Below are positions 3,001 through 59,017 of a stretch of DNA of 64,000 nucleotides, in pieces (position 1 is the first letter of the stretch; every line of letters begins with the position of its first letter). The stretch covers positions 46,330-110,329 of the forward strand of contig CAZDVO010000002.1 of assembly GCA_964508905.1 (NCBI GenBank), given 5' to 3'. A model generated the notes under the pieces. That model saw nothing but the letters and a program-made list of their open reading frames with translations, had not been told where the DNA came from and did not search any database. The position numbers were made by a program, and so were the translations under genes. This DNA is from an uncultured bacterium (GTDB taxonomy: Bacteria > Omnitrophota > Omnitrophia > Omnitrophales > Aquincolibacteriaceae).

Positions 3001-6000
3001 AAGGAGACAACGGCCGTCCATGTGGTGGCATAAAAATCCGCCACGTATTGGGTTCCGTTGATGTAAAGATTGGTTTCGGCATCCTTGGTCCCAGAAAGCA
3101 CAAGCTGCGTCGAGTTGATGAAAGCAGGCACAGGCGAAATGATCACGGGCGCTGCCGGCGTAAATTCATAAACGATCGTGTCGCTGAAGGTCGCGATATT
3201 TCCGGCCTTATCGCGAACCTGATATTGAACTTCTTTCGTGGCATACCCCGCCGTCAGCGTGATCGCGCGGGTCGCCGCAAAAGCCTCCCAATCCGTCCAG
3301 GTCGATCCACCGTCCACCGTAAAACGGACCCCATCCACCCCACTCAACGCGTCCGCCGCCGTCAGATTCAGCGTTACGTCCCTCGTACCGGTTGAAGCCG
3401 CGCCATTGTTGATCTTTACTGAGCCTGTCGGCACCGCCCGATCACGGATGGTGGCCACAATGGCCGCCGCGCTCGTTTTCCCTGCGCTCGTTTTCACGGT
3501 CACCGAGAATGTTTTTGATCCATCGGCTGACAGAGAAACGGTCGCCGTCCATGAAGTCGCGTTAAAATCCGCCGTGGTTTTAGTCCCATTGATATAGAGA
3601 TAGGTCTGAGCTTCCTTGGTTCCCGAGAGAACCAGCTGGGTCGCATTCGTATAAGCCGGAACGGTCGATGTCACGACCGGCGTCGCGGGAAGAAATTCAT
3701 AAACGATCGTATCTTTCAATGTGACGAAATTGCCCACCCGGTCGCGGATCTGAAACTGAACCTCTTTCGTCCCATACCCGGCCGCCAACGTGATCGCGCG
3801 GGTTGGGGCAAAAGCTTCCCAATTCGTCCACGTCTTCCCCCCATCCACCGAAAAACGCATGGCATCCACACCCGAGGTCGTATCGGCGGCCGTCAAATTC
3901 AGCGTCACAGCCGCCGTCCCGGTGGATGAGGCTCCGTTATTGATCTTGATCGAACCGGTCGGAGCCGTGGTGTCACGACGAAGAACAAGGTTCTGGGTCG
4001 CGCAGGCAACGCCAAGAATGCTCTTGGCCAGCAACGTAACCGTATTATTCCCTTCCGAAGAGAGTGTCACTGTCGCCGTCCAGGTCAACGAGGTATCCGC
4101 CGGAGCCACAAGCTGGCCATTCACGTAAACCGAACTATACGCGGCTTTGGTCCCAGAAATCGTCACGGTCTTCTGGCCAAACACCGTCGGCGTCGAAGGA
4201 TCCAGCACCGGGGCAGCCGGCGCCGTGGCCCCGGTAAGCGCCCGGGTAGCCCCTGAACGATAAACTTCGAAAGCGCTGCTCTGGAGGCGGGTCAGCGCCG
4301 GGACATCATCCAGGGTGATCGCGACCGAAGGAAGACTGATCCAAATGTCCGGGGCCCCACTCCACGTAAAATAAACACGCGTCCGCAAAGGTACGGACAT
4401 GATTTGCTCCTGAGCCAGGACCTTCGCTACGGCCGAACGCTGCGCCAATTCGTTGTACCGAGCATCCATCACCGCCATCATCCAACTTTGAGAGGCCCAG
4501 GTCGTCGAGGGGTTAGAATCCTTAAAATGAGGCACCGCCAGGAGGGCCGCGAAGGCCAGAACGCTCTGGGGGTCCATTCCCTCCAGGATCGTAACGTTGT
4601 TCTTGAAGTCCGTGCTCGTAAATCCCGTCACCGGCGGCGCTTTTTTCGCGTACGTAGTCAACTGGGAATCCGAGATCGTGGGTGCGATCACCTGCGTCGT
4701 CGCAAAAAGCATCTTGGCCAGGGCCTGATCACGCGCGCTCAGCCCCGCCAGCAACGCGGTCCTTTGCGATGAAGTATAAGTAGAAATTTTCCATTGAAAA
4801 TTTTCGCGCGCCTGGAACACGGCATCGTCATAGCGCGTGGACAAGGCGGGATTCGCCAGTAAAGCCGCAAGCTCCGCGGAAAATTCGGCGCAGAGCGCGG
4901 ACATGTCATTACTCACGATCGTGTCTTTATAAGTGCCCGTATTCCCAAGGCGGTCGCGGACCTGACAGACGACCTCATTGGTTCCGATCTTCAAAGGAAG
5001 GGTCAACGGTTTTGTCGCGGCGAAAGCTTCCCACTCCGTCCATGTATTTCCCCCATCCATCGAAAAGCGCATGGAATCAACACCCGCCCCCGCGTCGGTG
5101 ACGGCCACATTCAGGATCACGTTCGCCGAACTCGTCGATGAAGCACCATTATTGATCTTAACCGATCCGGTGGGCGCTTTGGTGTCGCGGATGACCCGGA
5201 TCGTTTGGGTAGCCGTTGAAACCCCCAGAGCGCTTTTGGCGAGAAGCGCAATGGAGTTAGAGCCTTCGGAACTCAGGGAAACATTCGCCGTCCAGGTCGT
5301 CGAGGCATCCGCGGCGGCAACCAGTTTTCCCTTCACATAAACCGCGCTGTAGGCTTCTTTAGTTCCGCTCAAGGTGATCGTTGATTGGTTGGTCACAAGC
5401 AAAACGGAAGGGTCTAGTTGCGGAAGCGCGGGGGCAGCCGCATCCGTCCCATTCAGGCGAAGATAGAAAGTCCCGCTGGCATAACTGGCTGTGGTATTTC
5501 CCGGCTCTACATAAAAATCAATCGCACGGATCCTGGAAAGATCCACGCTCGACTGGATCTGACTGAGATTCATCACCCAATAACGCTGCGTGGAACTCGC
5601 CACTTGAGTTAACTGAAAACCGGCGGTATTGCCCTCGACATCTTCAAAGCGGACGTTCACCGTATGGGCACCCCCGGTAAGTCCGACCGTTAGGTTGCCA
5701 AGCCCCGAGAGGTTGCCGGTCTCCTGACCCGCCGTGGAGTAATCATTAAAATCCATGGTGATCCCCGACTTCGTCCCCGCCGTTTTGACATTGTATTTGA
5801 CCGCGAACTTTCCGGACGAAAAGCTGATCGCCGTGGTACTGCTGGAACCATCCATCACATGCGGAAGAGGTGTCCCCGGCAAGGTTGAAACATTCGATGT
5901 CGTAAGGCCAGACGTGTAAGAGATCGCGACAAGAGGCGCCGCCACAGCCGCCGCAACGTAAGCTTTTTCGGGAAGCCTGGGATCCGTTGCCGCCGGGGAA

Positions 6001-6080
6001 TAAGCGACCTCCGCGCGAACGACCGGAACCGGCATCAAACAAAGCGATAAAGCTACGACCACGGAAACGGCTGATTTCAT
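1..6080 (-). CDS. Secreted giant surface protein, 3' end beyond window (>2026 aa): signal peptide, clan GH-A TIM-barrel glycosidase-like domain, beta-sandwich, then tandem Ig/Fn3-like repeats
   Basis: Start and signal peptide: ATG is the reverse complement of cat at 6078-6080, preceded by RBS GGAGG (rc of cctcc 6088-6092), translating MKSAVSVVVALSLCLMPVPVVRAEVAYSPAATDPRLPEK. Reading frame: I translated the minus strand by hand through 5400 and spot-checked at 2160-2460 and 1-120, all in frame with 6080 and with no stop codons. Absence from the ORF track: consistent with a missing stop codon beyond position 1. Domain evidence: the region around 2160-2460 gives KWYKTDFALMAQMGINTIRV ... GIKVVVRVDFPVGG ... 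NAYKHHPAVLMWSVGSLWDLNRYG, the clan GH-A beta-3/beta-4 pattern (compare LacZ RDRNHPSVIIWSLGNE). Repeat evidence: the plus-strand mini-ORFs containing PLLIDTDPAGATVSR-like strings (38-1059, 2728-5340) are antisense shadows of ~95-aa repeats, e.g. DTIVYDVIPTTPVITSPVP. Confidence 0.75.
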   Translation of the reverse strand, partial: MKSAVSVVVALSLCLMPVPVVRAEVAYSPAATDPRLPEKAYVAAAVAAPLVAISYTSGLTTSNVSTLPGTPLPHVMDGSSSTTAISFSSGKFAVKYNVKTAGTKSGITMDFNDYSTAGQETGNLSGLGNLTVGLTGGAHTVNVRFEDVEGNTAGFQLTQVASSTQRYWVMNLSQIQSSVDLSRIRAIDFYVEPGNTTASYASGTFYLRLNGTDAAAPALPQLDPSVLLVTNQSTITLSGTKEAYSAVYVKGKLVAAADASTTWTANVSLSSEGSNSIALLAKSALGVSTATQTIRVIRDTKAPTGSVKINNGASSTSSANVILNVAVTDAGAGVDSMRFSMDGGNTWTEWEAFAATKPLTLPLKIGTNEVVCQVRDRLGNTGTYKDTIVSNDMSALCAEFSAELAALLANPALSTRYDDAVFQARENFQWKISTYTSSQRTALLAGLSARDQALAKMLFATTQVIAPTISDSQLTTYAKKAPPVTGFTSTDFKNNVTILEGMDPQSVLAFAALLAVPHFKDSNPSTTWASQSWMMAVMDARYNELAQRSAVAKVLAQEQIMSVPLRTRVYFTWSGAPDIWISLPSVAITLDDVPALTRLQSSAFEVYRSGATRALTGATAPAAPVLDPSTPTVFGQKTVTISGTKAAYSSVYVNGQLVAPADTSLTWTATVTLSSEGNNTVTLLAKSILGVACATQNLVLRRDTTAPTGSIKINNGASSTGTAAVTLNLTAADTTSGVDAMRFSVDGGKTWTNWEAFAPTRAITLAAGYGTKEVQFQIRDRVGNFVTLKDTIVYEFLPATPVVTSTVPAYTNATQLVLSGTKEAQTYLYINGTKTTADFNATSWTATVSLSADGSKTFSVTVKTSAGKTSAAAIVATIRDRAVPTGSVKINNGAASTGTRDVTLNLTAADALSGVDGVRFTVDGGSTWTDWEAFAATRAITLTAGYATKEVQYQVRDKAGNIATFSDTIVYEFTPAAPVIISPVPAFINSTQLVLSGTKDAETNLYINGTQYVADFYATTWTAVVSLPSDGSKTFSITAKMATGKESPAATVQTIRDTVLPTGSIKINNGAAMADARVVTLNLTASDALSGVDKVRFSVDLGETWTDWEVFSATRSITLPGADGEQEVRYQVSDKAGNIATYIDTIVLNNPVPAEASIVRVLDGDRRLFVQERLEDGSLGTEGAYISQGVNWAPASQSPLDQLAEYVKWYKTDFALMAQMGINTIRVNQDFGTGADAIKILDELWRQGIKVVVRVDFPVGGTQADLSNVSAVVNAYKHHPAVLMWSVGSLWDLNRYGNKFSTIEDAAAFTEQAAQLIKSLDSFHPVTTEIGDPHTLGSHVLSAEAFPYLMKPYCTNNWYCTSVSTEDMVNTLVSSIDVWGITPSRGNTFQDALDQWQSITDKPAYIAQFGVGTTELAYVDEANKSQVNGEMWDEVYFELSAERTNGTLVGAFAYAWNNNTGGAGVGLVDIDRNPSLAYTALQSRFKDPVNGVQMNAHPVITVTSQGDSSVEIDGKVMFNRGGGGAGARGINVFVFDTSTGIRISDYRSFDTYAGDVWHTRLIDYLNNLANGTLVLFSVEDEGGLRNSGAALQTKALLSSAAWGSTEINNVVYQGGWAMAAIKGQGKLAEGVSAQQVPVSITLQPSLVLDINAGLREAVFPSTPVVTSPVPQFTNQTTFVLSGTKDAGTSILINGKLVVSLDNETTWTATVTLGAEGDNTLNVTSLNALGKSSATLPLSIKRDTVAPAGSVSINNGDATTGSTTVTLALTGSDATSGVDTMRFSVDGGATWTSWEAFAPTETVTLTAGYGTKTVQYQLKDKAANVATYSDTITYDVIPTTPVVTSTVPVYTNATTVVISGTKEANTSILINGVEKVALNSSTTWSVTVSLSEGTNTFSIKSRNSSSVESGSVSVSPVRDTVAPAGSVSINNGDAFTGSLSVNLALTGSDATAGLDAMSFSVDGGVNWSSWESFATTKSLTLTSGYGTKTVQYRIRDKAMNIATFSDTIVYDVIPTTPVITSPVPEFT
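1500..2600 (-). other. Clan GH-A (GH2/GH5/GH42-like) TIM-barrel domain inside the secreted protein; acid/base Glu apparently replaced (VGNE -> VGSL)
   Basis: Hand translation gives MAQMGINTIRV (beta-1 region), AAFTEQAAQLIKSLDSFHPVTTEIGDP, and HHPAVLMWSVGSLWDLN where GH-A enzymes carry NE(P). Family assignment is from motif memory only. Confidence 0.45.
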
Positions 6081-6202
6081 GTAAACCTCCCGATTAATTT
6101 TTTGTATTAAAAAAGTTTTAATGTCGAAAAGATAACAGCTTGTTGTGTTTTCGGCAAGGGGTAAGCGGACATTTTTAAAGCTGGGGAATACAGAACGTAA
6201 CC
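6081..6202 (-). promoter_or_regulatory. Intergenic leader/promoter region of the secreted-protein gene (downstream of nadE stop)
   Basis: AT-rich 120-bp spacer between the nadE stop (6203) and the ATG at 6080, with an RBS adjacent to the start. No specific promoter hexamers claimed. Confidence 0.3.
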
Positions 6203-8023: not shown

Positions 8024-11000
8024 CTATGCGGAAGCGGCGACACGAGACTGGGTGGCCACAAAATTCGCGAGCTCGGCCATGAGAGACTCCAACCCGCCCA
8101 GCTTTTCCACGGACACGAAGTGATACCCCATCGACCAGATCGCGTCGTTGAGCAATTTATCAGCCGCCAACAGCGTGGACGCTGTTTGCTTGAGCGGATT
8201 CCGGGCCCCCACCACGCTCAAGAGATGCCGACGAGAACCGATCTTCCGAGTCACGACAGAGTCTTCACGATCCGTGATAAGAGCCACGGATTGCCCCAGC
8301 GGCGCCGCACTGTTATAGAAACTCGCAAAGGCTCCGACAAACTCGTTCTCATTGGCAAATGCACGAACTGCGAAATTCTGCGGCAAAGCACCCATCTGGC
8401 TAAGAGCCGCAAGTTCTTTCTCGAACGTAGCGACCTCAGAAGCTTCCGCGATCAATGCGAGCACCACCGCGGCCTTCGGGTTATATCGCGCAAAGGTTAC
8501 CAAAGGCAGCACGCTCGCCGCATCCGGAATCCCCTGCCGCTGGTCAACCACCATCCGTTCCGTTGAAGCTGTCGCGGATGAGCTCATGATCTTGTTAAAC
8601 ACCGGCCACTTCTGCGCAAAAGCGGAAGGAACCGTCGAAACCTGCTGAAAGTGACGGGTACCTGCAAAAAGCTCCGGGGCAATCTCGGAAGCATATGCCG
8701 GAGTGCTCGACAGGAGCGGCGAAACCGTATTCGCCGCCACCCGGATCGCCGTCCCGATCTTTGCCCCTAAGCTGCTCGCATCCACCGCAAGGGCCAACGG
8801 AGTATCAGTCATCTCATAAGTTCGCGCTTCGGAGCGAGATAGAACCTCATGGGCCCGCGCATCAGATTTCAAGGGAGTAACAACCGCTTCAGGCGCTATA
8901 GACTGAACAACACCCGTTGACGTGACGGCTTTCAGTCTGGCAATGGCCACGACAAGCGCTTCATGGGCAGGATTGGGGCGACGTTCCACGCCTGTATTTG
9001 CAGACCCCACAGAATAAAGCCTTCCCGTATCTCCAGGCCCACCCGTTTCAAATTGCTCTTCGGAAACACCGTAGACAAGCTCGGCAGGCATGGTCTTCAG
9101 GATTTCTCCCAAGGAAGCGACCATCGTGGGGTTATTGACCGATTGAAACATATCAACTAAGGCGAGAATAGCACCTTGTGCAGGATCTATAACTTCATAA
9201 GGTCTTGTATCCCCCGTGCGATACTTCAGCTCTTCAACGAGAACGGGAATGCCGCTAAGATCCTGTAGCTTAAAACGCGCCTGCGCAGCAGCAATGCGCA
9301 CATCCAGATATTTATGTTTCAATTCCTTGCCGAGTTCTCGCAAAGCGGCGAGGTCATTCAGCCGAGTAATAGCCGCCCAACGAATATGAGGATTTTCGTC
9401 GCCCAAGATATCGATCAATATTGGAATAGCCCGCGGATCGTTGAGCACCCCAAGCGTATTGATAGCCTCCACCCGGCGGTTATTCTTGCGTTCCTCAAAA
9501 ATCCCCCAAAGCCAAATACGGAAACTCAGAATCCCCCCAAGAACCGTTCCCAGGACAAACCCCGCGACCACGGATGTCATCGATCCCATTAAATATCCCA
9601 CCAGGCCACCCATAACGATACTCCCGAGAAATGAGATCATTGAACCGTGGTCACACCACTTGGGCTGAAGATCCGATATGGCTTTCTGGAATTGTTTTTC
9701 TTGCTCGGGCGTCAGGCGGGCTTGCCCTGAGTTTGCCGAACGGGATTCTGAGCGGGACTTTACCTGGGGTTCAAGAATGCTTAACGCTTTCAGAACAGCA
9801 TCCCGAACCAAGAGATCAGGATCCCCGGCAACCGCTTTTAACGCAGGGATCGCCTGAGATTCTTTGATCCCACCAAGAATCTTAGCCGCAGCCATTCGAC
9901 GATCGGCGACCTTCCCCGGAAGCAAAACCCCACCCTTTCGAGGTTGGAGATCCATGATCAAATGCTGAATCAACGCTTGTCTCAAAACACGCACCTCTTC
10001 CAGGGCTCTAGATCCGAGGATTGGTTCAACATCTTTATCCAACCTGCCGGACTGCCAAAGGATCTCTTGCAAGCCCCGCGCGGGATCTACGGGAATTGGC
10101 GCCGCATAATCATAAACGGTCGTTGCGATACCAGCCTGAGACAACGCCCCCCGAAACGCCAACGAGCCGCGAATCTGGAGCAATGGCGCATGCATAAAAA
10201 TGGCCGAACGACCTTGATATCCCGAAGCCAGTTCTCTTTTAAGAATATCGACAGAAAAAACGCCGTTGTCCGTCATTCCTTGGGACGCCTTCTCCACCCA
10301 TATCGCTTCAGCGGGTACTCCGGCTCGAACCAGAGCATCTTTCATCACTAAAGCCTCCGCACGAACGGATTCCCCCGTCTGTCCATTCGTCCCACGATCG
10401 GGATCTTCAGGAAGCGGTTTGATATGTTTGCCAAAGCGCCCGGATACGATAACCCTGGACATTTTGTGAGCAAAAAAGATCTTAGCCGCCTCCTGAGCCA
10501 CGGCTTCACTGTCGGGACTTCCGAAAATCACCAAAAGATCAGCTTCTCGAGGCAGTGCATCCCGCTTAGCCATCAAAGCGACGATCTGCTGCGCTTCTTT
10601 TTCTCGAATGGATTGAAGAATCGCGCCGGCGGATTCTTCAGCAGAACGGTTCGTGTTATCGATCTCAACGGCATCCGCGGCTTTCCTGAAAGGAGCCACG
10701 GGGCGGATACTATCGATACGGTCACGTTCCAAAAGATCCCGCTTCACCTGCTCGAGCGTGATCTGTTTTCCGCCCCCCTCAAAATCACGCATTCTCCGCT
10801 TCGCACGAACATCGGGATCCGCCGTCAGAAAAAACTTATACGGTGTATCAGGAAAAACATCCGCCCCCACATTCCGGCCTTCAATCACCATATTGTCGGC
10901 TTCCCCAAGCTCACGTCCGGTTTGAAAAACCCAACGGAGCACGGCAGAATGGCGTGAAACAAGTGCAACGGCATTACCCACCTCGGGACTCCGGATACTT

Positions 11001-14000
11001 TCCGTCAAAGGGACCCCATCACGAAAGACCACTGTTTTCCCTTCGGCATATTTCACATCGATCCGTGTGCGAGCCAGCATGCTCTCGATCCCCGCAGCAT
11101 CATCCAGATCCAGCTTTTCATTCAAGGCCTTCTCAGCCACAGCTCGATTCAAAACACCAAGCTCAATGTGCTTATAGCCAAGCGCTTGGGCAAGCTTACG
11201 CGCCACAGTTCCCTTCCCCGTCGCCGAAGCCCCATCCATGGCAATCACCGTGGTTTTAAGCGGGTTCAGCTTAAGATCCAACTCCCGCGACTCAGAGCGA
11301 CCGACCATTTGACTGGCCGCCCTGACCTGGAGTTCGATCTCATTCCCCTGCCTCATGACAGGAATGCCGAAGAAATCCTTCTCCACACCGTCGGGCAAAC
11401 CGTCCAGTTCCCTTTTCACATCAGCTGTGCGCATGTCGTTCCGCCATCCCTCATTCATCATAGCCCGCAGCACCAAGGCACCGGCATCACGAATGGCTGC
11501 TTTTCTTAGTTCAGGCGCCTCTGATCTTACAAGGTCCGTTCGGATAGCAATGTCTCCGCTCCCAGAAATTTGAGATAACTGGGCAAGAAACTTCATAAAC
11601 TTCACGTACTGACGATAACCCCTTCCATGTTCGATCAAATAATTACAAATCCAGACGGTCCCGAGAATGATATCCAGATCATCTCGAAGGCTTTTGCGTA
11701 ACTGAGCCTCCTCGGCTCCGAACAATTGGCTAATAGTAGCTTTCAAAACCTTTATTTGAGTATGGTCTAAAAGAGGCGCTTGAAGATGCGGACGGGCCGC
11801 CATTTCAAGCCGGTATTCGTCATAGCGCTCCGTCAGCCCCTTCAACCCTTTTGGAGCCAGCCATGTCGTCATGGTTTCCAATTGATGAAGAGGCAACTTG
11901 TTATAACGATCATCGAGCGATGCCGCATCGGCCACAACATGCAGGACCAAGTACGGCATGAGCGTTCCGGAAGAAAGGTACCCTTTGTATCCCTTCGGAA
12001 CCTCGAGAAATTTTTTGGCGCGCAATTCTCCAAGATAAGTAGGGCCGGCCTCCATATGTTTCAATACGATCGCGGCTATCATTTCCTTTTCCTCTGCGGC
12101 CATCGGCAGAGGTGCTAGAAATTTACGAGCAATATCAGAACCTCTTTTTTCATGCCCCGTTCCATTCAGATCCTCAGAATATCCCGTATCATGGAATCGA
12201 ATCGCCAAACGAAGCGCCTGCTGTTCCTCAAGCGATAATTTGTCAAAGAAATCCTTCAACGCTTTTAAGCTCTTCCGATACCGCGCTTTGGTTGCATCCT
12301 TTGTTCCTTCAGGCATCCGTCCAAGGAAATAAGCGAAGTCCCCACGGGTAAGCGCTCTAAAATAGTTCTCCACCTGCACCATGTGTTGGGCGCGCCCCTC
12401 ATCGTCCTTGAGAATTTTCTGGTAGGCCGGGATGTCTTCGATGGCAATGATCTGCGATCCCGGATCCGCCTGCGCGGGCATCAGGCGCGATTGAGCTGAG
12501 TTTGTCGAGCGAGATTCGGAGCGACCACGCCCATTCGGTTTCGACATATGCTGAAGACTGATAAGAGCCAAAAGAACTCCGACCCCAACGCAAGCGTATG
12601 TCGCTGTGGGATTAGCATCAAAAAAAGCATGCAGGTCTCTGATCCAACCAATCTCATTTGCACTCACATGAGCAAGCAATGGGAGGGGCATAAAAGAGGG
12701 ATATCTCTCATTCCAATCTGCTTCGTCGTAAGCATGGTCCCTATCGCCACCTCTATACGCCGGTCCAGATGACCTACCCACCTCTCGCTCCAAGCGATCC
12801 GCTTCTTCCCGCTCAGCGCGTTCCATCTCTTCCCTCGCTATTCTTTTTTCATATTCCGCAAAGTCCTTCAGCGCCACTTCCGAACGAGGATCGCCCATTT
12901 TTCTTAATGCTTCCGCCGCAGCTCTTCCGGCATACTTGTACAACTCGTCCATCAGAGCCGACACCGCCCGAAGGTCCCCGATCACTCCCAACTGAGCAGC
13001 AACAGCCTTATTAAAATTGCTACCAAACCTCCGAATTCCAAGAGCTTCAATCAGCATGGGAACGGCCACAGCTCCTCGGACTCCCATCGCTTTCACTAAA
13101 TCTATAGCCAACGCATCGTTACGAGTAGTCTTTATAGCTTCAAGCAAGGCCTCCAAACTCGCCTCATCTGTCATCTGACTAAGCAAATGAACGGCGAGAG
13201 AGCGATTGCCGAGTCCGCCATGCAAAACCTCAGACAGCACGGGAATTGCTCTGGGGTCCTTCAGCTCACCCAAAGCAATCGCCACGAAATAACGAAAATC
13301 CCATCGTTGATCTTTTAACGTAGCATCAAGCGCAGAGGCAAAATGTTCTTTGAGTTCCCTCAGAGATTTTTTTGCTAAAGATTTGCGATCGCGTCCATAA
13401 TTATTAAACCTACCATCCCACCACTTGGGCTGGAGATCACTCAACACCTTCCGGAATTGTTTTTCCTGCTCGAGCGTCAGGCGGGCTTGCCCTGAGTCTG
13501 TCGAACGGGACTCAGAACGCAAACTCTTCCTCGACTTGATTGCTTCCAAAGATTCAGCCGCTTGTTTCGAGATCTCCTGGCTTCGATAAGTCACAGCATC
13601 ATTCAACAATTGTTCCACCGCGGGGGAATCGAATTCGGCTAAAGCGCTAACAATCAAAGCCTTTGTTCCCGCGGAGATCGGTTCGCGAGCAAGACCCGTT
13701 TTGTAAGCGTCATCGTAAAAGGCTCCAATCAAGGCTCTGAATGATTTCAAACTGCCGGCTTTAGCATACGCGGCCAGTTGTTCCACCGCCCGAGCACAAA
13801 CAGAAGGATCTTCGTCCCTCATAAGAGCCCGCAAACTCCGCAGAGCCTCAGCACCCACTTCAAAACGAGTCGGCTGGGGTCGCCTTAAAGAATTTACGGC
13901 ATAAAGAAAACACGTGATCATGCCGGCGAGGGCAAAGATCAACACAGCTGTTTGATGATCCTTTATGAAGAGAGAGAGAGGCTCGTTCCCGGCAACAGCA

Positions 14001-16518
14001 AGAAGCGAAAGAGGAATGAAGGAATTATGGCTCTCCCATTCGGCTCTATCGTAAGCATAGTCCCTGTCGCCGCCTCGATACGCCCCGGGGAAGGACCTGA
14101 GCCCCCTCGCCGATTGACGACGAGCGCCGAGAACCACAGGAAGAACGAAAATACCCACAAACGCGCTAATACCTAGCACGCGACCACCATATACGGCGAA
14201 AAAATAGTGCATCTTACTGATTCTATACAATGCCTTTGCCGCAGCCTCGGAATCATAGCCGAAACCACGCCGAAATATTGCTCTAAGCCTGGGGATCGCG
14301 GATGAATCATTAATTTCACTACTTTCGCCACGATCCACAAGACATTCGAAAGCTCTGTAAAACATTGGCCACTCTTGGCTATAAAATGCTGATTTTAAAG
14401 CGATAGTTACGGAGCGATCAGGGATCTCACGAAGTGCCTCCTGAGCATAAAAAAAAGATTTCGACCCCGACAAGGCGTTAATCAATTCAGGCACAGCCGC
14501 AGGGTCCCTTACTGCCCCCAGGGCATTTTGGGCAGAATACCTTACCGAAACAGGCTCGCTCTCATCATTACAAATTCTCACCAACGCGGGAATCCGCGAA
14601 ATTTCATCTATTGCTTTTCCACGCAACGGGATCATCCCCATCACCGCCGCGAGCATTAACTTTGCCGCGATAACACTACGCCTTCTAGGATTGATTTCTT
14701 CCTTATCCGTTCGCCGCGCTTCAGCACGAGCCACAGAGGACGTCGATGCAGGCGTCGGCGAACCAAAAGTAGAGGTAGTTACAGACTTAGAAAGGGACGG
14801 ACGGAGTGAGGCCTTTTCAGAATGGATCAGGCCGGAGATAAGGCCGCGAATCTCGGAACGCCAGGCTCGGGTTTGATCCTGGCCCGTGACGACAATACGA
14901 TCGCTAATCGGATTCATACCCAGGAGCGGAACGGCCTGGGAGGTCGCAAAGTCCCGCGACCCCATCATGGCCTTGAGATAAATATCATGGTCGCGTTTCG
15001 AAACTTCATTGATGCGCGGGGTGATCTGGAGATAGGAACAATGCTTGGACACCGCAAGCTTCTTGAGGCCGTCGGTGTGGAAACCGCCTGTCACGATCAC
15101 GGCGCGATCCTTCTTTTCCAGGTTCATGCGTTTGAGAGCATTCGCAAACATCTTGTTTTCACGAGCTACAGCCACAGCATAAAATTGTATTGCCTGCTCG
15201 TAAATCGGCTTAACCTTCTCAACTTCCGAGGAGAGACTGCGTCCCACCGGGGAAGTTCCTGAGGCGCATAGCTCTTCGTACTCAGCGCGAGTTAATTCGA
15301 GTGAAAATAATCGGCGTAGCAGATAAAGCTCCCGCGACTTCGAAAGATATTCTTTTTCATCCGCGGTCCTAGCCAAAACCGTCAGGAGCTTCTCTTTCAA
15401 ACGAACCGTCTCCTCCTGCAGGCCCTTCCCCTCCATCTCCTGCATCAAAATGATGTATTGAGCATACCGCATCCAATTTGGCCACGGGGCCATGGAAAAG
15501 TCTTTGGAGAGTTTATTGAAAACAAGATCAAAGGCGCGGCGCATCATGGAATAACCATCCGTCGTCCGGCTGACAGTCTTCAGCAGGTCTGTTTCGGGGG
15601 CTTGCAGGAGGGTTTTGAAGGCATCGAGAATCTCTTTGGAAACCTTGCGCCGGCCAAGCTCTGATAAAAACGCATCGGCTTCGCGGCGGGCTTTTTCACG
15701 GTCGATCTTGGAGCCGATGGCCTGTAAACGGAAATAGCGTATCAGGAAAGGATATGAGTCCTGATAAAAGGCGTCTGAAAGGTCGGTCTTAAGATGCTTG
15801 CGGCTTCCTTCACCCAAAGCCTTGATCCAGCTTTCAAAGGAAACGGTCCCCACCCCCAACGCTTCCTCTTGTCGAACGAGATTCAGGAGGTCTTTATTCA
15901 GCTTCGATGAAAAACGCCGGTCGAGCGCGGCCCTCAACGAACCCAGGAATTTCTCCGCGGTCTTTTCTTTTTTCACAACGCTGATAAACGCATCACGATC
16001 CTTCTTATAGGCATCAAGGTCTTCAATCCCCCACCCTTCGGTTTTGTCCGTCGACTCGATCAAAAAGGACTCAGGCCCGGTAAGATAGCCTTCTTGCATA
16101 AGCTTGTCCGTGACCTTCTTATTGAAATCGGGGTGTTTCGGGAAAAGGCGAAAGAGCTCGGGCTGAAGCTTATTCCCCGCGCCTTCAAGGAGGAGCAACT
16201 TCACGGACGAGTTTTTTTCGATATAGCCAAGAAGCTTTTCGATATTCTTCTCGGCCTGATAATTCCCGTGCGCGGACTGGATATGAATGAATGTGGGGGC
16301 CAGAGGATCCCCCATCATGGTATCGGTCACCTGCCCGAGCTCCGTCGGGATTGCAAGGGAGGCGGCGTTGAGCGCGGACACCTCGGCACGTCCGGCCAAG
16401 GATTGCGGCTGGAGCGTGGACACACTGATCCCTTGGGCAGGAGCGCCCCAGCTGATCTGCGTCGAGACGAAACAAAAAATTGTCACAAGGCTGATCGCTT
16501 TAAGCGTTTTGCTGAAGG
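8024..16518 (-). CDS. Giant multidomain membrane protein (~2,830 aa): N-terminal module paralogous to the 10,119-aa neighbour, HEAT repeats, TM helices, HD-domain-like, cytidylate-kinase-like and DUF218/YdcF-like domains
   Basis: The ORF track gives 8024..16588 with a non-ATG start. The likely true start is the ATG at 16518, with RBS AAAGGAG 10 nt upstream (rc of 16519-16540), giving MRSFSKTLKAISLVTIFCFVSTQISWGAPAQG, a signal/anchor sequence. Domain motifs seen: VIAMDGASATGKGTVARKLAQALGYKHIELGVLNRAV (Cmk P-loop); LAIRFHDTGY...GHEKRGSDIARKFL...LKHMEAG...HVVADAASLDD (HD-like); LLVIFGSPDSEAV...SGRFG...GESVRAEALVMKDALVRAGVPAEAIWVEKASQGMTDNG (DUF218); multiple PRAIPxL HEAT-like units; hydrophobic helices. 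Confidence 0.85.
9650..9760 (-). repeat. Intragenic ~105-bp DNA repeat, copy A (encodes ...QARLTPEQEKQFQKAISDLQPKWCDH...)
   Basis: ccacttgggctgaagatccgatatggctttctggaattgtttttcttgctcgggcgtcaggcgggcttgccctgagtttgccgaacgggattctgagcgggact is ~85% identical to 13430-13535. A weaker third copy lies at 12481-12545. Confidence 0.7.
10050..10560 (-). other. DUF218 (YdcF/ElyC/SanA-like) domain
   Basis: LLVIFGSPDSEAVAQEAAKIFFAHKMSRVIVSGRFG...GESVRAEALVMKDALVRAGVPAEAIWVEKASQGMTDNGVFSVDILKR fits the DUF218 pattern (vvLGg..., iivSGG..., sEAevM..yL...GVP...I..E..S.nT.eNa). Confidence 0.5.
10640..11270 (-). other. Cytidylate kinase (Cmk)-like P-loop NMP kinase domain embedded in giant protein
   Basis: TTVIAMDGASATGKGTVARKLAQALGYKHIELGVLNRAVA...RIDVKYAEGKTVVFRDG...ALVSRHSAVLRWV...NMVIEGRNVGADVFPDTPYKFFLTADPDVRAKRR matches the Cmk consensus (IAIDGPAGSGKGTVAK...YLDSGAMYRA...). 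P-loop DNA at ~11190-11250. Confidence 0.6.
11800..12300 (-). other. HD-domain-like (metal-dependent phosphohydrolase) segment
   Basis: H...HD...H...D spacing: RFHDTGY, GHEKRGSDIARKF, LKHMEAG, HVVADAASLDD. The DNA for FHDTG is at ~12185-12200. Confidence 0.4.
13420..13535 (-). repeat. Intragenic ~105-bp DNA repeat, copy B (encodes SRSESRSTDSGQARLTLEQEKQFRKVLSDLQPKWWDG)
   Basis: Direct DNA-level similarity to 9650-9760, read off the sequence. A second repeat family lies at 12690-12790 and 14025-14110 (tcgtaagcatRgtccctRtcgccRcctcKatacgcc), encoding AYRGGDRD(H/Y)AYD.A.W followed by a TM helix. Confidence 0.7.
14900..16518 (-). other. Conserved N-terminal ~540-aa module shared with the 10,119-aa protein (possible TraB/GumN-like fold)
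   Basis: TFIHIQSAHGNYQAEKNIEKLLGYI...VKLLLLEGAGNKLQPELF...KVTDKLMQEGYLTGPESFLI and DRAVIVTGGFHTDGLKKLAVSKHCSYLQITPRI align with IILHVQDAHINEEAQRNIANILRYF...LGLVSLEGASGELNTDLF...VADYFLREGRLTGPEYLAV and LSAIVTGGFHTPGIEKYLQEKGLSYIVVAPRI of the larger protein. Confidence 0.6.
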
Positions 16519-16588
16519 ATCTCATATCCGTTTTTCTCCTTTGATCGTCCATGTTTTTAAAACTAAAACACCGGGATTGCCGTCCCAA

Positions 16589-47620: not shown

Positions 47621-47867
47621 ACTCCCCTATTCGGAGAATCAACACCACGGGAGAAATATTTCATGACAGAAGGACAGGTGATGCCCATGAATATCTCGAG
47701 GATAAAAAAAAGAGAGCGGACGAATGATAAAGCCGGCGCCACACGAAACATCAAAATCCCGACGGAACGGATCAGACACCTACATCGAAAAGAGATATCA
47801 CGACCGCTAAAACCGCCGGGATATTTTGGACCTACCCTGACTTTTATTTATTTCTAAATGGTCGTCA

Positions 47868-47918
47868 GGACTGTCCCAATACATATCAATTTCCACGAAG
47901 TTGAAATTAGGGCTGTCC
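47868..47918. repeat. REP-like palindromic element (family GGACNRGYCCAAT - ~22-25 nt - ATTGGRCNRGYCC), copy 1
   Basis: ggactgtcccaatacatatcaatttccacgaagttgaaattagggctgtcc. It is homologous along its length to 58888-58956 (gtcccaattcttatcaatttcagagaatctgaaattggggcc) and has internal inverted repeats (caatttc / gaaatt). Confidence 0.55.
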
Positions 47919-48053
47919 AAACTACCGTTATGGAACAGAAATGAAAAGTTTGGACTGGCCCATTTAACCTTAGATTTTTCGAAAGAGAAATGGACCCGCA
48001 CTTGCCTCCGATTCATTTTCAGAACGGCGACAAGTGCTGGCCCAGTTTCCAAT

Positions 48054-48091
48054 AAAAAAAGCCCTTCGGAATTACCCGAAGGGCTTTTTTA
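48054..48091. terminator. Bidirectional rho-independent terminator hairpin
   Basis: aaaaaaa-gcccttcgg-aattac-ccgaagggc-tttttt: 9-bp GC-rich stem, 6-nt loop, with an A-run 5' and a T-run 3', so functional in either orientation. Located downstream of the tRNA/hydrolase transcription unit and upstream of the giant-gene AT-rich island. Confidence 0.7.
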
Positions 48092-48099
48092 ATGATAAC

Positions 48100-48117
48100 T
48101 GGACCTGAGGAGAGTCG
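48100..48117 (-). repeat. 18-bp perfect direct repeat of the tRNA-Ala 3' end (tggacctgaggagagtcg), possible att-site remnant
   Basis: Identical 18-mer at 48100-48117 and at 48258-48275 (the 3' acceptor/T-arm of the tRNA), same orientation, 140 bp apart. Confidence 0.6.
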
Positions 48118-48257
48118 GCGCCCTCCATTCGCTTCGCTCATTACGGGTCGGCCACCCGCCCTTAAAACATGACCTTCGTCATATTTTAAAGCAGGGCTCC
48201 CTTCGACTCTCCCCCAATCAAAAAAATATCCCGGAGGCAAAAGCTCCCGGGATATTT

Positions 48258-48330
48258 TGGACCTGAGGAGAGTCGAACTCCTGACCTCTGCAATGCGAAT
48301 GCAGCGCTCTACCAGCTGAGCTACAGGCCC
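48258..48330 (-). tRNA. tRNA-Ala (anticodon CGC)
   Basis: rc = GGGCCTGTAGCTCAGCTGGTAGAGCGCTGCATTCGCATTGCAGAGGTCAGGAGTTCGACTCTCCTCAGGTCCA, 73 nt. Cloverleaf folds by hand: 7-bp acceptor with G3:U70 (Ala identity), D-arm GCTC/GAGC, anticodon stem CTGCA/TGCAG with loop TTCGCAT (anticodon CGC), T-arm AGGAG-TTCGACT-CTCCT, discriminator A. CCA not encoded. Confidence 0.9.
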
Positions 48331-48359
48331 TTGTCCATTATTTCTTTTCTTAACGCCTG

Positions 48360-48565
48360 ACAAGGCCAGTCCTTTAGGACAGGCCCATGTCTTTATTTCA
48401 TTTTTGGACGGCAACATGGACCAGTCCAATTACCCGTCTACTTCTCAATTGAGAATTGGACAGGCCCTTGATTCTTATTTCATTGCTTCAAAGTTTTCAA
48501 GGACCAGCCCAATCAACCTTTAATCCTCAGAAGAGGATTGGACAGGCCCCCATCAAGAATGGCGG
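48360..48565. repeat. BIME-like cluster of REP-like elements in alternating orientation (motif ATTGGACAGGCCC / GGACCAGYCCAAT every ~40 bp)
   Basis: ggacaggccc at 48377, ggaccagtccaat at 48419, attggacaggccc at 48458, ggaccagcccaat at 48501, attggacaggccc at 48550. Pairs form 13-bp inverted arms around 23-24-nt loops (e.g. ggaccagtccaatt-acccgtctacttctcaattgag-aattggacaggccc). Related copies at 47868-47918, 47950 and 58888-59017. Confidence 0.55.
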
Positions 48566-48589
48566 GAAAAGCTGAAAAACAGGTCGGTA

Positions 48590-49423
48590 TTATACACAAT
48601 CTTCGATAATTGTCTTCAAAACATTGAAAGCTTTTTGCTGCTCCTGTTCATTGAAGATCTCATGGAAAAATCCATCGAAGGATGTTTTCTCTTTCCGAGG
48701 CGTCACAAGCCTGTCAAAAAAGAGGGCCGAAGCCTTAGGGTCCACCACATATTCCTTCCCCGGGACAAGCATATGGACCGGGAACGGAACCGAAAGGATC
48801 GCCTGCCCCTGAAGCCGGGCCATGGTCCTGAGGATCTCAGCCAGCAGCCGCGCGGACATGAATCTGAGAATCAACGGATCCCTTTTGTGATTGGCCACCT
48901 CCGACGGATCGTGGCTCAGAGTCCTCGACCGAACAGGGTTCTTGTAAACAAACCGCGGCATCACACATCGCAAAAGCTGATTCGCGGGCGCGATCCATCC
49001 GGACAGCCTGAGCCCCAAAAAAGGCGCCGAGAGAATGAGCAGCTTGACGCCCTCCGGAACTTTCATCGCCCAGCGAATAGCAATAAGCCCGCCCAGGCTG
49101 TGTCCCAAGAAGATGCATTGCTTCGGGATCGCGTGCTTCTGCCGGAGATGCGCGATAAACGCATTCATATCCTTAAGATAATCGTCAAATTCCGCGATAT
49201 CGCCGCGGATCCCTTCGGACCGCCCCATGCCTCGGAGATCCATGATCGCGAATTGCGCTGAAAGGCCGCGCATTTTTTCCGGGAATTTTACATAGCGTCC
49301 CGAGTGCTCCCCGTAGCCATGGATCATGATCACGGTATGACGCGCTCCGGGCACTGCAAAGAAGCGGTAAAAGAGTTTTGCTCCGTCCCCGCCGCAGAAG
49401 AAGTCTTCGCTCCACGCGCCCAT
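48590..49423 (-). CDS. Alpha/beta-hydrolase (lysophospholipase / monoacylglycerol lipase family)
   Basis: 277 aa. VIMIHGYGEHSGRY (Hydrolase_4-type HG..EHS..Y), nucleophile elbow GHSLGG, C-terminal Asp/His region. ATG at 49421-49423 abuts the fadD stop. Confidence 0.8.
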   Translation of the reverse strand: MGAWSEDFFCGGDGAKLFYRFFAVPGARHTVIMIHGYGEHSGRYVKFPEKMRGLSAQFAIMDLRGMGRSEGIRGDIAEFDDYLKDMNAFIAHLRQKHAIPKQCIFLGHSLGGLIAIRWAMKVPEGVKLLILSAPFLGLRLSGWIAPANQLLRCVMPRFVYKNPVRSRTLSHDPSEVANHKRDPLILRFMSARLLAEILRTMARLQGQAILSVPFPVHMLVPGKEYVVDPKASALFFDRLVTPRKEKTSFDGFFHEIFNEQEQQKAFNVLKTIIEDCV

Positions 49424-58887: not shown

Positions 58888-59017
58888 GGCTAGTCCCAAT
58901 TCTTATCAATATCAATTCTTATCAATTTCAGAGAATCTGAAATTGGGGCCATCCGGTCACCCTCAGGATAAGAATCGAAGACAAGGATAGTCCCAGTTCT
59001 TATCGATTTCAGAAAGG
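58888..59017. repeat. REP-like elements (same family as 47868-47918) plus GATAAGAA/TTCTTATC repeats in promoter region
   Basis: tagtcccaattcttatcaatatcaattcttatcaatttcagagaatctgaaattggggcc (58889-58950) and the partial copy tagtcccagttcttatcgatttcagaaagg (58988-59017). TTCTTATC occurs three times directly and once inverted (ggataagaatc, 58966-58976). Confidence 0.55.

Follow-up and report, generated by a model that had tools for sequence, protein, structure and literature searches.

The palindromic elements described here lie in a 64,000-nt stretch of an Omnitrophota contig (hereafter the window), where they flank a tRNA-Ala(CGC) gene on the minus strand (48258 to 48330) and stand 0.6 to 1.3 kb upstream of the start, at 47230, of a 10119-aa open reading frame. 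All copies in the window are intergenic. A preliminary description of this DNA had recorded at least eight copies of a 13-nt palindromic arm around the tRNA gene, and the cluster is real. The exact consensus is too strict to reproduce that count, since it recovers four arms only, two for the pattern GGACNRGYCCAAT (48418 and 48501, versus 0.01 expected) and two for its mirror ATTGGRCNRGYCC (48455 and 48537), whereas a relaxed arm, defined as GG[AG]C-N1-3-G[CT]CC-N0-1-AA[TA] (a core GGRC-NN-GYCC plus AAT), matches nine times within 47868 to 48549. A scan of the whole window with the relaxed arm adds a single weak stray match at 63296. Dinucleotide-model simulations give this arm a chance mean of 0.02 per 706-nt region and 1.8 per whole window, so the nine clustered arms are far above chance.

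The strict alternation of arm orientation also holds, over 48364 to 48549, with arm spacings of 36 to 46 nt and hairpin units 49 to 50 nt in length. The copy near 58.9 kb (58888 to 58954) is a true homologue of the unit at 47868 to 47918; after it come a spacer and then a half unit (58985 to 59013). Two suggested roles did not survive. No specific tie to the giant gene was found, the units between it and tRNA-Ala differing among orthologous loci. No unit is followed by a T-run, and a scan finds no terminator at the units; because the units lack T-runs, we reject a terminator function and treat two terminator-like hairpins (48220 to 48257 and 48052 to 48093) as separate features (Table 1).

Units on the two sides of tRNA-Ala(CGC)

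On the leader side of the tRNA gene, the U1 hairpin folds as DNA with -8.4 kcal/mol (z = -2.65) and is homologous to the distal unit of locus L016, and U2 folds with -8.9 kcal/mol (z = -3.78). The stretch from 48379 to 48467 shares 83 to 89% nucleotide identity with units in L022, L048, L005, L024, and L016, and in the alignment the proximal-type spacer is kept from species to species and is common to tRNA-Ala and tRNA-Lys loci. Every upstream unit opens with the same 8 nt as tRNA-Ala(CGC), GGGCCTGT, and by this identity the 5' end of the tRNA acts as a third arm, A3. The AAGACA-16-TATAAT site is near-invariant in the tRNA-Ala(CGC) loci that we read, the hydrolase protein itself being 56 to 67% identical, and this promoter-like site probably drives the leader together with the tRNA. 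Promoter-like sequences also occur within the spacers, namely, a sigma70-like TTGAAA-18-AAGAAT (9/12 match) in the distal spacer and TTGTCA-N17-TAATGG in the last spacer, which is homologous to other spacers (repeat family D3). We rejected an array of sigma-70 promoters in the spacers, for which the single 9/12 match in the distal spacer is not conserved, and an array of sigma-54 promoters, whose consensus is a poor fit by eye.

On the 3' side, the last 18 nt of element X reproduce the tRNA 3' end exactly; the element was found at five loci, only downstream of tRNA-Ala or tRNA-Lys, and shows compensatory changes at 8 pairs. Farther along, the arms of hairpin U4 are common to U4' and U5, giving a chain of alternating arms, and the interior of U4 is a subtype-c spacer by homology with L026 and L029. 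The segment at 47789 to 47837 looks like the original tRNA trailer, displaced by approximately 420 nt of inserted material, and the trailer arrangement at the tRNA 3' end of L043 matches it. In searches of the window and 14 related loci against Rfam 15, only tRNA passed the gathering threshold, and permissive E-values also returned only tRNA. A CRISPR array was rejected because both linkers are conserved between copies and species; the best Rfam CRISPR-DR match reached 18 bits (gathering score, 50), and no cas domain turned up when window genes were scanned with Pfam.

Table 1. Features around tRNA-Ala(CGC) and near 58.9 kb, in window positions
Feature	Position	Strand	Basis
Promoter-like AAGACA-16-TATAAT, in 3' end of alpha/beta-hydrolase gene	48589..48616	-	10/12 match
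Unit U1, subtype a, distal variant: GGGCCTGTCCAAT-loop-ATTGGGCTGGTCC	48501..48549	-	CM R1, 63.8 bits
Distal-type spacer between U1 and U2	48468..48500	-	Complementary ends CCTTGA...TCAAGG
Unit U2, subtype a, proximal type: GGGCCTGTCCAAT-loop-ATTGGACTGGTCC	48418..48467	-	CM R1, 64 bits
Proximal-type spacer (CCATGTTGCCGTCCAAAAATGAAATAAAGACAT)	48387..48417	-	Alignment; flank covariation ATGTC/GACAT
Unit U3, short hairpin, two arms only (GGGCCTGTCC-TAAA-GGACTGGCC)	48364..48386	-	Fold -7.9 kcal/mol, z = -4.67
Last spacer, adjoining the tRNA 5' side	48331..48363	-	Read from sequence; repeat family D3
tRNA-Ala(CGC)	48258..48330	-	ARAGORN; Rfam, 68.7 bits
Terminator-like hairpin directly 3' of the tRNA	48220..48257	-	Inverted repeat I13, then T-run
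Element X, structured, ~116 nt, not a palindromic unit	48100..48215	-	Direct repeat D9; fold z = -5.79
Second terminator hairpin, after element X	48052..48093	-	Inverted repeat I3, 18-nt arms, 94% complementary; T-runs
Lone degenerate arm GCTGGCCCAGTTTCCAAT, counted in the preliminary description	48036..48053	.	Read from sequence; not detected by CM
Degenerate unit U4'	47952..48001	-	CM R1, 35.7 bits, E = 2.8e-8
Hairpin U4	47910..47961	.	Inverted repeat I5; fold z = -3.92
Unit U5, subtype c: GGACTGTCCCAAT-loop-ATTAGGGCTGTCC	47868..47918	+	Aligns with U6 and with L026 and L029 subtype-c units
Subtype-c spacer, inverted, other side of U5	47838..47867	-	Read from sequence; by-eye comparison with L026
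GGGTAGGTCCA (copy of last 7 tRNA nt) and decayed tRNA-terminator copy	47789..47837	-	Direct repeat D4, 78% over 45 nt
Unit U6, subtype c, 5' half internally duplicated	58888..58954	+	Alignment; fold z = -2.0 to -2.5
Subtype-c spacer and half unit (GGATAGTCCCAGTtcttatcgatttcaga)	58955..59013	+	Comparison with subtype c

A dispersed module and its presumed insertion sites

The repeat module spans approximately 82 to 86 nt and combines a 50-nt hairpin with a conserved 32-nt spacer. It begins with arm A1 (GGRC-NN-GYCC-AAT), followed by a loop of approximately 24 nt, arm A2 (ATT-GGRC-NN-GYCC), and 4 to 5 variable nt, and it closes with a conserved spacer interior of approximately 21 nt and then the complement of those 4 to 5 nt. 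Subtypes a, b, and c align over both hairpin and spacer and thus represent one module. Subtype a was found only upstream of tRNA genes starting GGGCCYGT (tRNA-Ala CGC, tRNA-Ala UGC, and tRNA-Lys UUU), and subtypes b and c are either intergenic or placed in frame within genes.

The preliminary description had allowed for a local duplication, but homologous units in many Omnitrophota MAGs and metagenome contigs establish a dispersed family. The module occurs in arrays of one to three or more units, both in named Omnitrophota MAGs (at least 12) and in additional metagenome contigs. The two-arm pattern was matched at 16 Omnitrophota loci among GTDB species representatives and at approximately 20 further metagenome loci, with four MAGs matched on two or three separate contigs each. 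CM R1 detected further copies 3 to 6 kb from the seeds, or, as a rough guide, approximately one additional site for every 40 kb of flanking DNA. Copy number differs among orthologous sites: the tRNA-Ala leader holds three units in the window versus one in L022, L043, and L048, the tRNA-Lys leader holds two in L016 versus one in L005 and L024, the number at the L018 locus ranges from one to three or more, and a unit at the tRNA 3' end is present in L043 and absent from L022. At L032, an N-gap falls within an array. A related 59-nt family in Planctomycetota has the same arms and likewise occurs in frame in genes. Literature searches returned no description of such elements in Omnitrophota or Planctomycetota, and the palindrome family in Omnitrophota has apparently been undescribed so far.

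Occurrence inside coding regions had been counted in advance against such a family; coding copies were found, yet they are in-frame insertions in related genomes. The carriers, none of them in the window, are UvrA, UbiD, QueD, FtsK, a Ski2-like helicase, RbfA, and LspA. In UvrA, 56 aa are inserted exactly between adjacent residues 236 and 237 of PDB 9gxk; QueD has approximately 21 extra aa, the FtsK copy lies in a linker, and the RbfA and LspA copies lie at the C termini. Two of the six module frames are open, and every coding copy is in the hydrophilic frame (DKPNSPS.NSKVNWTSPGN..), as expected from selection on tolerated insertions. The inserted peptides match no Pfam family, and a profile search with the doubled-module peptide gave only five weak hits, including fragments with ACT and class IV aminotransferase domains. 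The in-frame copies offer many natural examples of tolerated peptide insertions, and they matter for the annotation of MAGs, where modules extend or fuse open reading frames (e.g., RbfA and LspA) and can break assemblies.

The first 5 to 10 nt of each array are repeated after its last spacer, and the repeat changes with the insertion site. It reads GGGCCTGT at tRNA-Ala and GGGCCCGT at tRNA-Lys (Fisher p = 7e-4), CAGGTCCA at the tRNA 3' end in L043, GGCAAG in UbiD, GATAAG in FtsK, GGACA in UvrA, CCAGGGCCTG in the helicase, and, within conserved codons, ACAAG in QueD. To judge from these sequences, the site-dependent repeat at the array end behaves as a target-site duplication would. Its length of 5 to 10 nt varies, unlike that of classical fixed-length target duplications, and the repeats could instead stem from gene conversion between neighboring arms or from template switching at microhomology. 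At one tRNA-Ala locus, L081, A1 contains GGGCCCGT versus GGGCCTGT in the tRNA.

We consider it reasonably probable that the clustered copies belong to a family of small, non-autonomous, target-specific palindromic insertion elements of Omnitrophota, and our best reading of this family is that its anatomy is BIME-like and its behavior resembles that of Rickettsia palindromic elements (RPEs). The module would insert immediately 5' of a sequence resembling its own core, for example, GGACAAG in genes or, at tRNA acceptor stems, GGGCCYGT at one end and CAGGTCCA at the other. Insertion would duplicate 5 to 10 nt of the target, so that each array ends in a partial third arm, A3, and arrays would lengthen and shorten through tandem duplication. 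In the window, both acceptor-stem ends of tRNA-Ala(CGC) would have attracted insertions, resulting in three units in the tRNA leader and, on the other side, in units and element X that part the tRNA from its original terminator. The upstream units would be transcribed within the pre-tRNA leader and removed at 5' processing, with a mostly neutral effect. Mobility would be provided in trans by a transposase or recombinase; among the window genes tested and the fetched loci, no candidate gene for either flanks a copy, and a scan of viral contigs found no phage with the motif. The site-specific direct repeats and the core-like target provide a concrete handle for finding the mobilizing enzyme. The same few sites recur across species with proteins only 56 to 76% identical, and subtype-a DNA is 83 to 89% identical next to leader sequence that is not alignable; the recurrent sites and the conservation of subtype a both agree better with purifying selection, or with insertions fixed long ago, than with continuing selfish spread.

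Alternative readings of the units

It is possible, although we think it unlikely, that the subtype-a units form a functional RNA module of the pre-tRNA leader, perhaps domesticated from a mobile family. A1 copies the first 8 nt of the tRNA, and the three arms together would switch 5' maturation or guide the folding for it: pairing of A1 with A2 would produce a 13-bp hairpin mimicking the tRNA-Ala acceptor stem, including G3.U70, and in the alternative state A2 would pair with the last 5 nt of the leader and tRNA positions 1 to 8, burying the RNase P site. The placement of the units agrees with such a role, in that 21 of the 21 a-type units read lie upstream of a GGGCCYGT-starting tRNA in the tRNA sense, the proximal one of each array ending 31 to 34 nt before the tRNA (Ala CGC, Ala UGC, or Lys UUU). 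Unit and spacer are 83 to 89% identical at the nucleotide level, versus 56 to 76% at the amino acid level for the flanking proteins, and the rest of the leader is also less conserved. The promoter-like site upstream of the a-type units is conserved, so these units should be transcribed together with the tRNA.

Both helices (A1-A2 and A2-leader/tRNA) are approximately 88% paired and are better on the tRNA-sense strand, with G.U in 17 of 17 sequences, and the second outscores every slid control and 500 of 500 shuffles. Compensatory substitutions are seen at pairs 14:25, 15:24, and 16:23 of the inner mini-helix and at pairs 51:85 (AU/UA) and 54:82 (UA/AU/CG) of the A2-flank/leader helix. The 13-bp outer stem is near-invariant, and covariation there is therefore uninformative. 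However, a T-to-C change at tRNA position 6 is copied in A1 and never compensated in A2, leaving a mismatch in both helices (17/17 sequences), a pattern that speaks for copying and against selection on pairing. Homologous b and c subtypes lie inside coding regions, where a leader role is impossible, b-type stems pair better on the opposite strand, and the copy number in the leader varies from one to three; furthermore, the related sequences behind these counts are not independent samples. Copies in tRNA leaders show unusual conservation and may be functional; together with their strict placement, this conservation makes them a case in which possible domestication as an RNA-processing element can be tested.

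We give little credence to a wider synthesis, in which Omnitrophota and Planctomycetota would share an as yet undescribed system of transposition or recombination that acts on GGRC-NN-GYCC cores, inserts palindromic modules of approximately 60 to 85 nt next to core-like targets, some of them inside essential genes, and includes a three-arm switch in the tRNA-Ala and tRNA-Lys leaders, with one domesticated, acceptor-stem-mimicking subfamily governing 5' maturation.

The chances are slimmer still that these are genuine REP/BIME elements (REPINs), whose arms would be single-stranded hairpins moved by a RAYT (IS200-like Y1 transposase) encoded elsewhere. The BIME organization proposed in the preliminary description is borne out in part: arms alternate in orientation with two alternating conserved linkers ("loop" and "spacer"), as in BIME-2, and arrays vary, but neither the REP tag nor a RAYT was found. 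The inverted, internally palindromic arm pairs form hairpins, like REPIN doublets, and insertion adjoins a specific short target. A mid-stem mismatch is invariant in the hairpin of the arms, and Y1 transposases recognize imperfect hairpins. REP families have been reported in the PVC superphylum, and a GTAG or CGTC tetranucleotide at the stem end defines two REP superfamilies (PMC3733652). That tag is absent here, however: the arms start GGRC, and the flanks are GACAT, TCAA, GCTA, or GCCA. Pfam scans of the window genes tested and a crude HUH/Y motif scan of approximately 0.5 Mb detected no RAYT or transposase, and the frequent in-frame intragenic copies and the 82-nt module with its long conserved spacer are atypical of REPs.

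It is quite improbable that the arms are operator sites, approximately 40 bp apart, for a dimeric DNA-binding protein regulating the tRNA and neighboring promoters. Each arm (core GGRC-NN-GYCC) is internally palindromic, the spacing is approximately four helical turns, and an arm at 58.9 kb shares bases with a -35-like hexamer that precedes a TATAAT by 17 nt (by eye); perfect TTGGACCGGTCCAA palindromes also stand, in an operator-like manner, on both sides of a stretch containing TTGACA in Nitratireductor (L010) and Bauldia (L051). Yet these alphaproteobacterial sites have the core alone in common with the Omnitrophota elements, and the same sequences stand in frame in UvrA, UbiD, QueD, FtsK, and others, where operators make no sense; moreover, loop and spacer are conserved alongside the arms, and the variable flanks covary as stems. 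We attach almost no weight to local debris only, i.e., tandem duplications and decayed tRNA-Ala pseudogenes of one locus. In its favor, the units begin as the tRNA does, the 3' end of the tRNA and its terminator are found again farther downstream (D4 and D9), and L048 has an interrupted tRNA-Ala pseudo-copy downstream of its own tRNA. The unit interiors, however, bear no resemblance to the tRNA, and as a complete explanation the debris reading is refuted by homologous units both at 58.9 kb and at numerous unrelated sites of other genomes, some of them in coding regions.

Comparison with known repeat and mobile elements

Like tRNA-targeting integrative elements, whose att core is the tRNA 3' end, the palindromic elements and element X considered here have tRNA-end direct repeats flanking inserted DNA, for example, the 18-nt copy ending element X and the AGGTCCA flanking the insert of approximately 420 nt. 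Unlike those elements, they have no integrase here, the inserts are 80 to 420 nt, the tRNA 5' end is also used, and the repeats are short (8 nt). Bacterial MITEs (e.g., Correia/NEMIS, ERIC, and Coxiella QMITE) are similarly non-autonomous, with terminal inverted repeats and flanking direct repeats, and are occasionally fused in frame with host open reading frames (PMC10969869). The terminal inverted repeats of the Omnitrophota modules are the 13-nt arms, which are 87 to 92% paired. In contrast to MITEs, the direct repeats are of variable length and similar to the core of the element itself, no parent insertion sequence with matching ends is known, and the tandem head-to-tail arrays with shared arms are atypical; no arm pair flanking an open reading frame was seen in the window or the fetched loci.

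With the BIMEs/REPINs of Escherichia coli, the Omnitrophota elements have in common alternating imperfect palindromes, two conserved linkers, variable clusters, hairpins of paired units, and, for the copies in the window, an intergenic location. They differ in having arms of only 13 nt, many in-frame copies, and a tight association with the ends of tRNA acceptor stems.

The in-frame intragenic insertions make RPEs the closest behavioral analogue. RPEs (Ogata et al. 2000, in the summaries given in PMC10969869 and PMC3733652) are also short palindromes that occur between genes, next to RNA genes, and in frame in functional genes. Both add a conserved, tolerated peptide, and a transposase is known for neither. 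RPEs belong to another phylum and are roughly 100 to 150 bp versus 82 to 86 nt for the Omnitrophota module, which unlike RPEs occurs in tandem arrays with site-specific direct repeats of 5 to 10 nt and a core-like target; the likeness is one of behavior, and no sequence relation is claimed or, with phylum and consensus both different, to be expected. Omnitrophota and Planctomycetota are largely free-living or predatory, mostly uncultured bacteria. In-frame colonization of essential genes by palindromic repeats has been known mainly from Rickettsia, and the cases in Omnitrophota and Planctomycetota suggest that it is more widely spread.

Palindromic units around tRNA-Ala

The window is bacterial, with 53% G+C, and its minus strand carries nearly all genes. 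A dense cluster of a short arm motif had been claimed at 47860-48565 in the preliminary description; the cluster stands, although the consensus given for it is exact just twice per orientation, GGACNRGYCCAAT occurring at 48418 and 48501 (expected, 0.01) and the mirrored form at 48455 and 48537. With the arm relaxed to GG[AG]C, 1-3 nt, G[CT]CC, 0-1 nt, AA[TA], nine matches fall in 47868-48549 and one weak stray match in the other 63 kb; dinucleotide-model simulations predict 0.02 matches in that region and 1.8 window-wide. The arms alternate in orientation, as had been proposed, and pair as 49-50-nt hairpin units with fold energies of -8 to -9 kcal/mol as single-stranded DNA; minus-strand folding z-scores are -2.6 to -4.7, and the plus strand is weaker. 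The copy noted near 58.9 kb is confirmed: 58888-58954 can be aligned with 47868-47918 through the arms, the loop that they enclose and the next spacer, with a half unit behind it at 58985-59013. A covariance model of 19 units detected one degenerate unit in the window and no copy inside any window gene.

The order acyl-CoA synthetase, alpha/beta-hydrolase, tRNA-Ala(CGC), and giant gene is common to Candidatus Omnitrophota MAG loci, where the synthetase is 70-75% and the N terminus of the giant protein 75-76% identical at the protein level, which identifies the window's source as an Omnitrophota bacterium. The promoter-like sequence upstream of the units, probably the tRNA-Ala promoter, is almost invariant as DNA among the tRNA-Ala(CGC) loci read, while the hydrolase protein is just 56-67% identical. 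The first 8 nt of tRNA-Ala, GGGCCTGT, are also the start of every upstream unit. Elsewhere in the window, the 2854-aa ORF is an odd fusion of HEAT repeats, a complete cytidylate kinase domain (aa 1782-1995), and DUF218, and neither strand of the first 6.2 kb (1-6200) has an ORF of more than 301 aa.

Positions of palindromic elements and associated features (window positions unless an L-numbered locus, matched in species-representative genomes or metagenome contigs, is given)
Feature	Position	Strand	Remark
2854-aa ORF	8024-16588	-	
10119-aa ORF	16871-47230		giant gene
AAGACA-16-TATAAT	48589-48616	-	promoter-like; within last codons of alpha/beta-hydrolase gene
Unit U1, then spacer	48549-48501	-	
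Unit U2, then spacer	48467-48418	-	
U3, then spacer	48386-48364	-	short two-arm hairpin
tRNA-Ala	48330-48258	-	
Terminator-like hairpin	between tRNA-Ala and element X	-	
Element X	48215-48100	-	exact 18-nt copy of tRNA 3' end at its end
Second terminator	after element X, before U4'-U5 chain	-	
Units U4', U4, U5, then spacer	48001-47868	-	four-arm chain, read on minus strand
GGGTAGGTCCA and decayed tRNA terminator copy	47837-47789	-	
Element X, other loci	L022 836-954; L005 7334-7450; L016 1971-2080; L043 7355-7469		
Planctomycetota element, examples	L013 4165-4223; L006 5263-5321; L019 6921-6979; L027 3265-3323; L042 6187-6245		
a-type units, tRNA-Ala(CGC)	window, L022, L043, L048, L064, L070, L075, L078, L080, L081, L083		
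a-type units, tRNA-Lys(UUU)	L005, L016, L024, L074, L077		
a-type units, tRNA-Ala(UGC)	L068		after tRNA-Ile

A family dispersed among Omnitrophota genomes

A strict two-arm pattern was run against 185,579 species-representative genomes and matched 60 loci; such a pattern favors well-conserved copies and recurring sites, and related sequences among the matches are not independent samples. Sixteen of the 60 belong to Omnitrophota or unclassified MAGs and have units of 49-52 nt, 34 belong to Planctomycetota and carry a different unit, mostly 59 nt, with identical arms, and the other 10 are probably unrelated. Metagenomes added 23 loci, about 20 of them with units of the Omnitrophota family. The three Omnitrophota subtypes (a, b, and c) can be aligned with one another in one orientation across hairpin and spacer, as a repeat module of about 82-86 nt. 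Because loci occur in many genomes, the covariance model finds extra copies 3-6 kb from the seeds in three of them (L026, L047, and L005), and each of four MAGs has units on two or three different contigs, the family is dispersed and not a local duplication, the distinction on which the preliminary description had rested its proposal; purely local tRNA debris is accordingly a scarcely credible explanation.

Arrays hold one to three or more modules and differ in size between orthologous sites; at one locus, the copy number is 1 in L018 and L073, 1.5 in L030, at least 2 in L062, and at least 3 in L032 and L063. An assembly gap (N run) lies within the tandem b-type array of L032, around 4593-4700, so such arrays can break or collapse MAG assemblies. 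No Rfam family covers the elements, no Pfam family covers the peptides they encode, and no description of them was found in the literature, Omnitrophota genome papers included.

Sites in tRNA leaders and protein genes

Each of the 21 a-type units read precedes a tRNA gene and is oriented in its sense, the proximal unit of each array ending 31-34 nt before the tRNA, and all tRNAs behind them start with GGGCCYGT. The variable tRNA position is copied in the unit, as C in 5/5 Lys and T in 12/13 Ala copies (Fisher p = 7e-4; samples not independent). Unit and spacer are 83-89% identical in DNA among species whose proteins are 56-76% identical and in which the remainder of the tRNA leader cannot be aligned. 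Downstream of tRNA-Ala in L048 (~5852-6060) is a second, interrupted tRNA-Ala-like sequence, with D-arm, anticodon-stem, and 3'-end segments split by GC-rich palindromic inserts and the terminus GACTCTCCTCAGGTCCA, which may be a tRNA pseudogene colonized by other palindromes.

In related genomes, several copies lie within long ORFs in the sense orientation. UvrA of L029 aligns with a solved UvrA through residues 28-243 (to 21-236) and 300-375 (to 237-308), which places a 56-aa insert between two neighboring residues; QueD (L050) has an insert of about 21 aa. Other copies lie between the N-terminal and Rift-related (UbiD) domains of UbiD, in the linker of FtsK, and immediately ahead of the DSHCT domain of a Ski2-like helicase, and those in RbfA and LspA form C-terminal extensions that recur in several species. 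The module is open in just two of its six frames, and every coding copy uses one hydrophilic frame (DKPNSPS.NSKVNWTSPGN..SEENRGQDK).

Each array ends with a spacer and then 5-10 nt that repeat the start of the first arm and vary by site: GGGCCTGT at tRNA-Ala, GGGCCCGT at tRNA-Lys, GGCAAG in UbiD, GATAAG in FtsK, ACAAG in QueD (where the downstream copy is conserved Q-H-K coding sequence), GGACA in UvrA, CCAGGGCCTG in the Ski2-like helicase, and CAGGTCCA at a tRNA 3' end in L043. In the window, AGGTCCA lies on both sides of roughly 420 nt between the tRNA and its old terminator. Such site-varying repeats would be expected from insertion beside a core-like target with target duplication. Gene conversion or template switching at microhomology could also produce them, and their variable length leaves room for either. 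On balance, we favor a non-autonomous palindromic insertion element that would target core-like sequences, both ends of tRNA acceptor stems among them, and would then expand into arrays through tandem duplication; its mobility is inferred. The motif was absent from the viral contigs scanned.

The copies in tRNA leaders could also be functional, for example as a three-arm switch around the RNase P site, a tentative reading that is compatible with an insertion element and is favored by their fixed position and high conservation. An alignment of 18 a-type sequences contains two helices that exclude each other, with pairing of about 88% in each. Helix 1 consists of arm A1 paired with A2 plus an inner mini-helix, three pairs of which show compensatory changes; helix 2 joins A2 and 5 flanking nt to the last 5 leader nt and tRNA positions 1-8, shows AU/UA and UA/AU/CG exchanges, and scores above every shuffle and every slid control. 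Little can be learned from the 13-bp outer stem, which is nearly invariant; every copy has a mismatch at one central position. Across subtypes, the spacer is flanked by 4-5 nt that vary yet are complementary (ATGTC/GACAT, TTGA/TCAA, TAGC/GCTA, TGGC/GCCA, and TTGT/ACAA). Because the Ala/Lys T/C difference is never compensated in A2 and b-type stems pair better on the opposite strand, these patterns are only suggestive of an RNA role.

Relative to the asymmetric arms and to the flanking spacer, the hairpin interior is found either way round (about 19 versus 10 in Planctomycetota copies), and compared with subtype-c units in L026 and L029 the loop of U5 (47868-47918) is flipped with respect to its minus-strand-side spacer, which suggests loop inversion between the inverted arms.

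Other palindromes and known systems

Element X is a conserved, strongly structured sequence of about 115-130 nt (z = -5.8; 8 pairs with compensatory changes) found solely downstream of tRNA-Ala or tRNA-Lys, past a terminator, and matching no Rfam family. At its 3' end it repeats the final 11-19 nt of the neighboring tRNA, and the 5' end, complementary to this repeat, varies with the tRNA (GGAGAGTCG for Ala and GGATTCGA for Lys). Candidate identities are a miniature tRNA-targeting integrative element and a small RNA.

The Planctomycetota element (34 loci within L002-L061), for which no description was found in the literature, has the arms gaaaaggGGACAGGTCCAAT...ATTGGACCAGTCCccttttc as in Omnitrophota units, is present in several copies per genome, and sits in frame within KdpD, a Ser/Thr kinase, DnaE, a metallopeptidase, and an AddB-like nuclease (Pfam), adding peptides such as EKGTGPICRNGPEGAAHKLDQSPF. 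Bacteroidales MAGs and metagenome contigs (L028, L035, L044, L069, and L084) carry a tandem, roughly 45-nt unit, GGACGGGTCCAATTCCCTTTACTAAATTGGACCGACACTATT, that has the GGAC..GTCCAAT core in common with the Omnitrophota units and is otherwise unrelated. In Nitratireductor (L010, 5439-5507) and Bauldia (L051, 6742-6807), two perfect TTGGACCGGTCCAA palindromes around a TTGACA stretch look like operators around a promoter and show that the core can serve as a protein-binding dyad too.

Operator arrays are an improbable account of the Omnitrophota family and a true REP/RAYT system an unlikely one; no RAYT-like gene was found among the Pfam-scanned window genes or by a crude motif scan of the window and fetched loci. 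Both, like local debris, rank below the insertion element and the functional leader. In anatomy, Escherichia coli BIMEs are closest, and the BIME-like organization proposed earlier is borne out in the alternating palindromic units with two alternating linkers, but not in the GTAG/CGTC tag, the defining REP feature (PMC3733652), which the elements here lack. MITEs share the terminal inverted repeats and flanking direct repeats, but no parent IS is known for the elements here. In behavior, the closest are Rickettsia palindromic elements, whose in-frame insertions into functional genes add a conserved peptide (PMC10969869).
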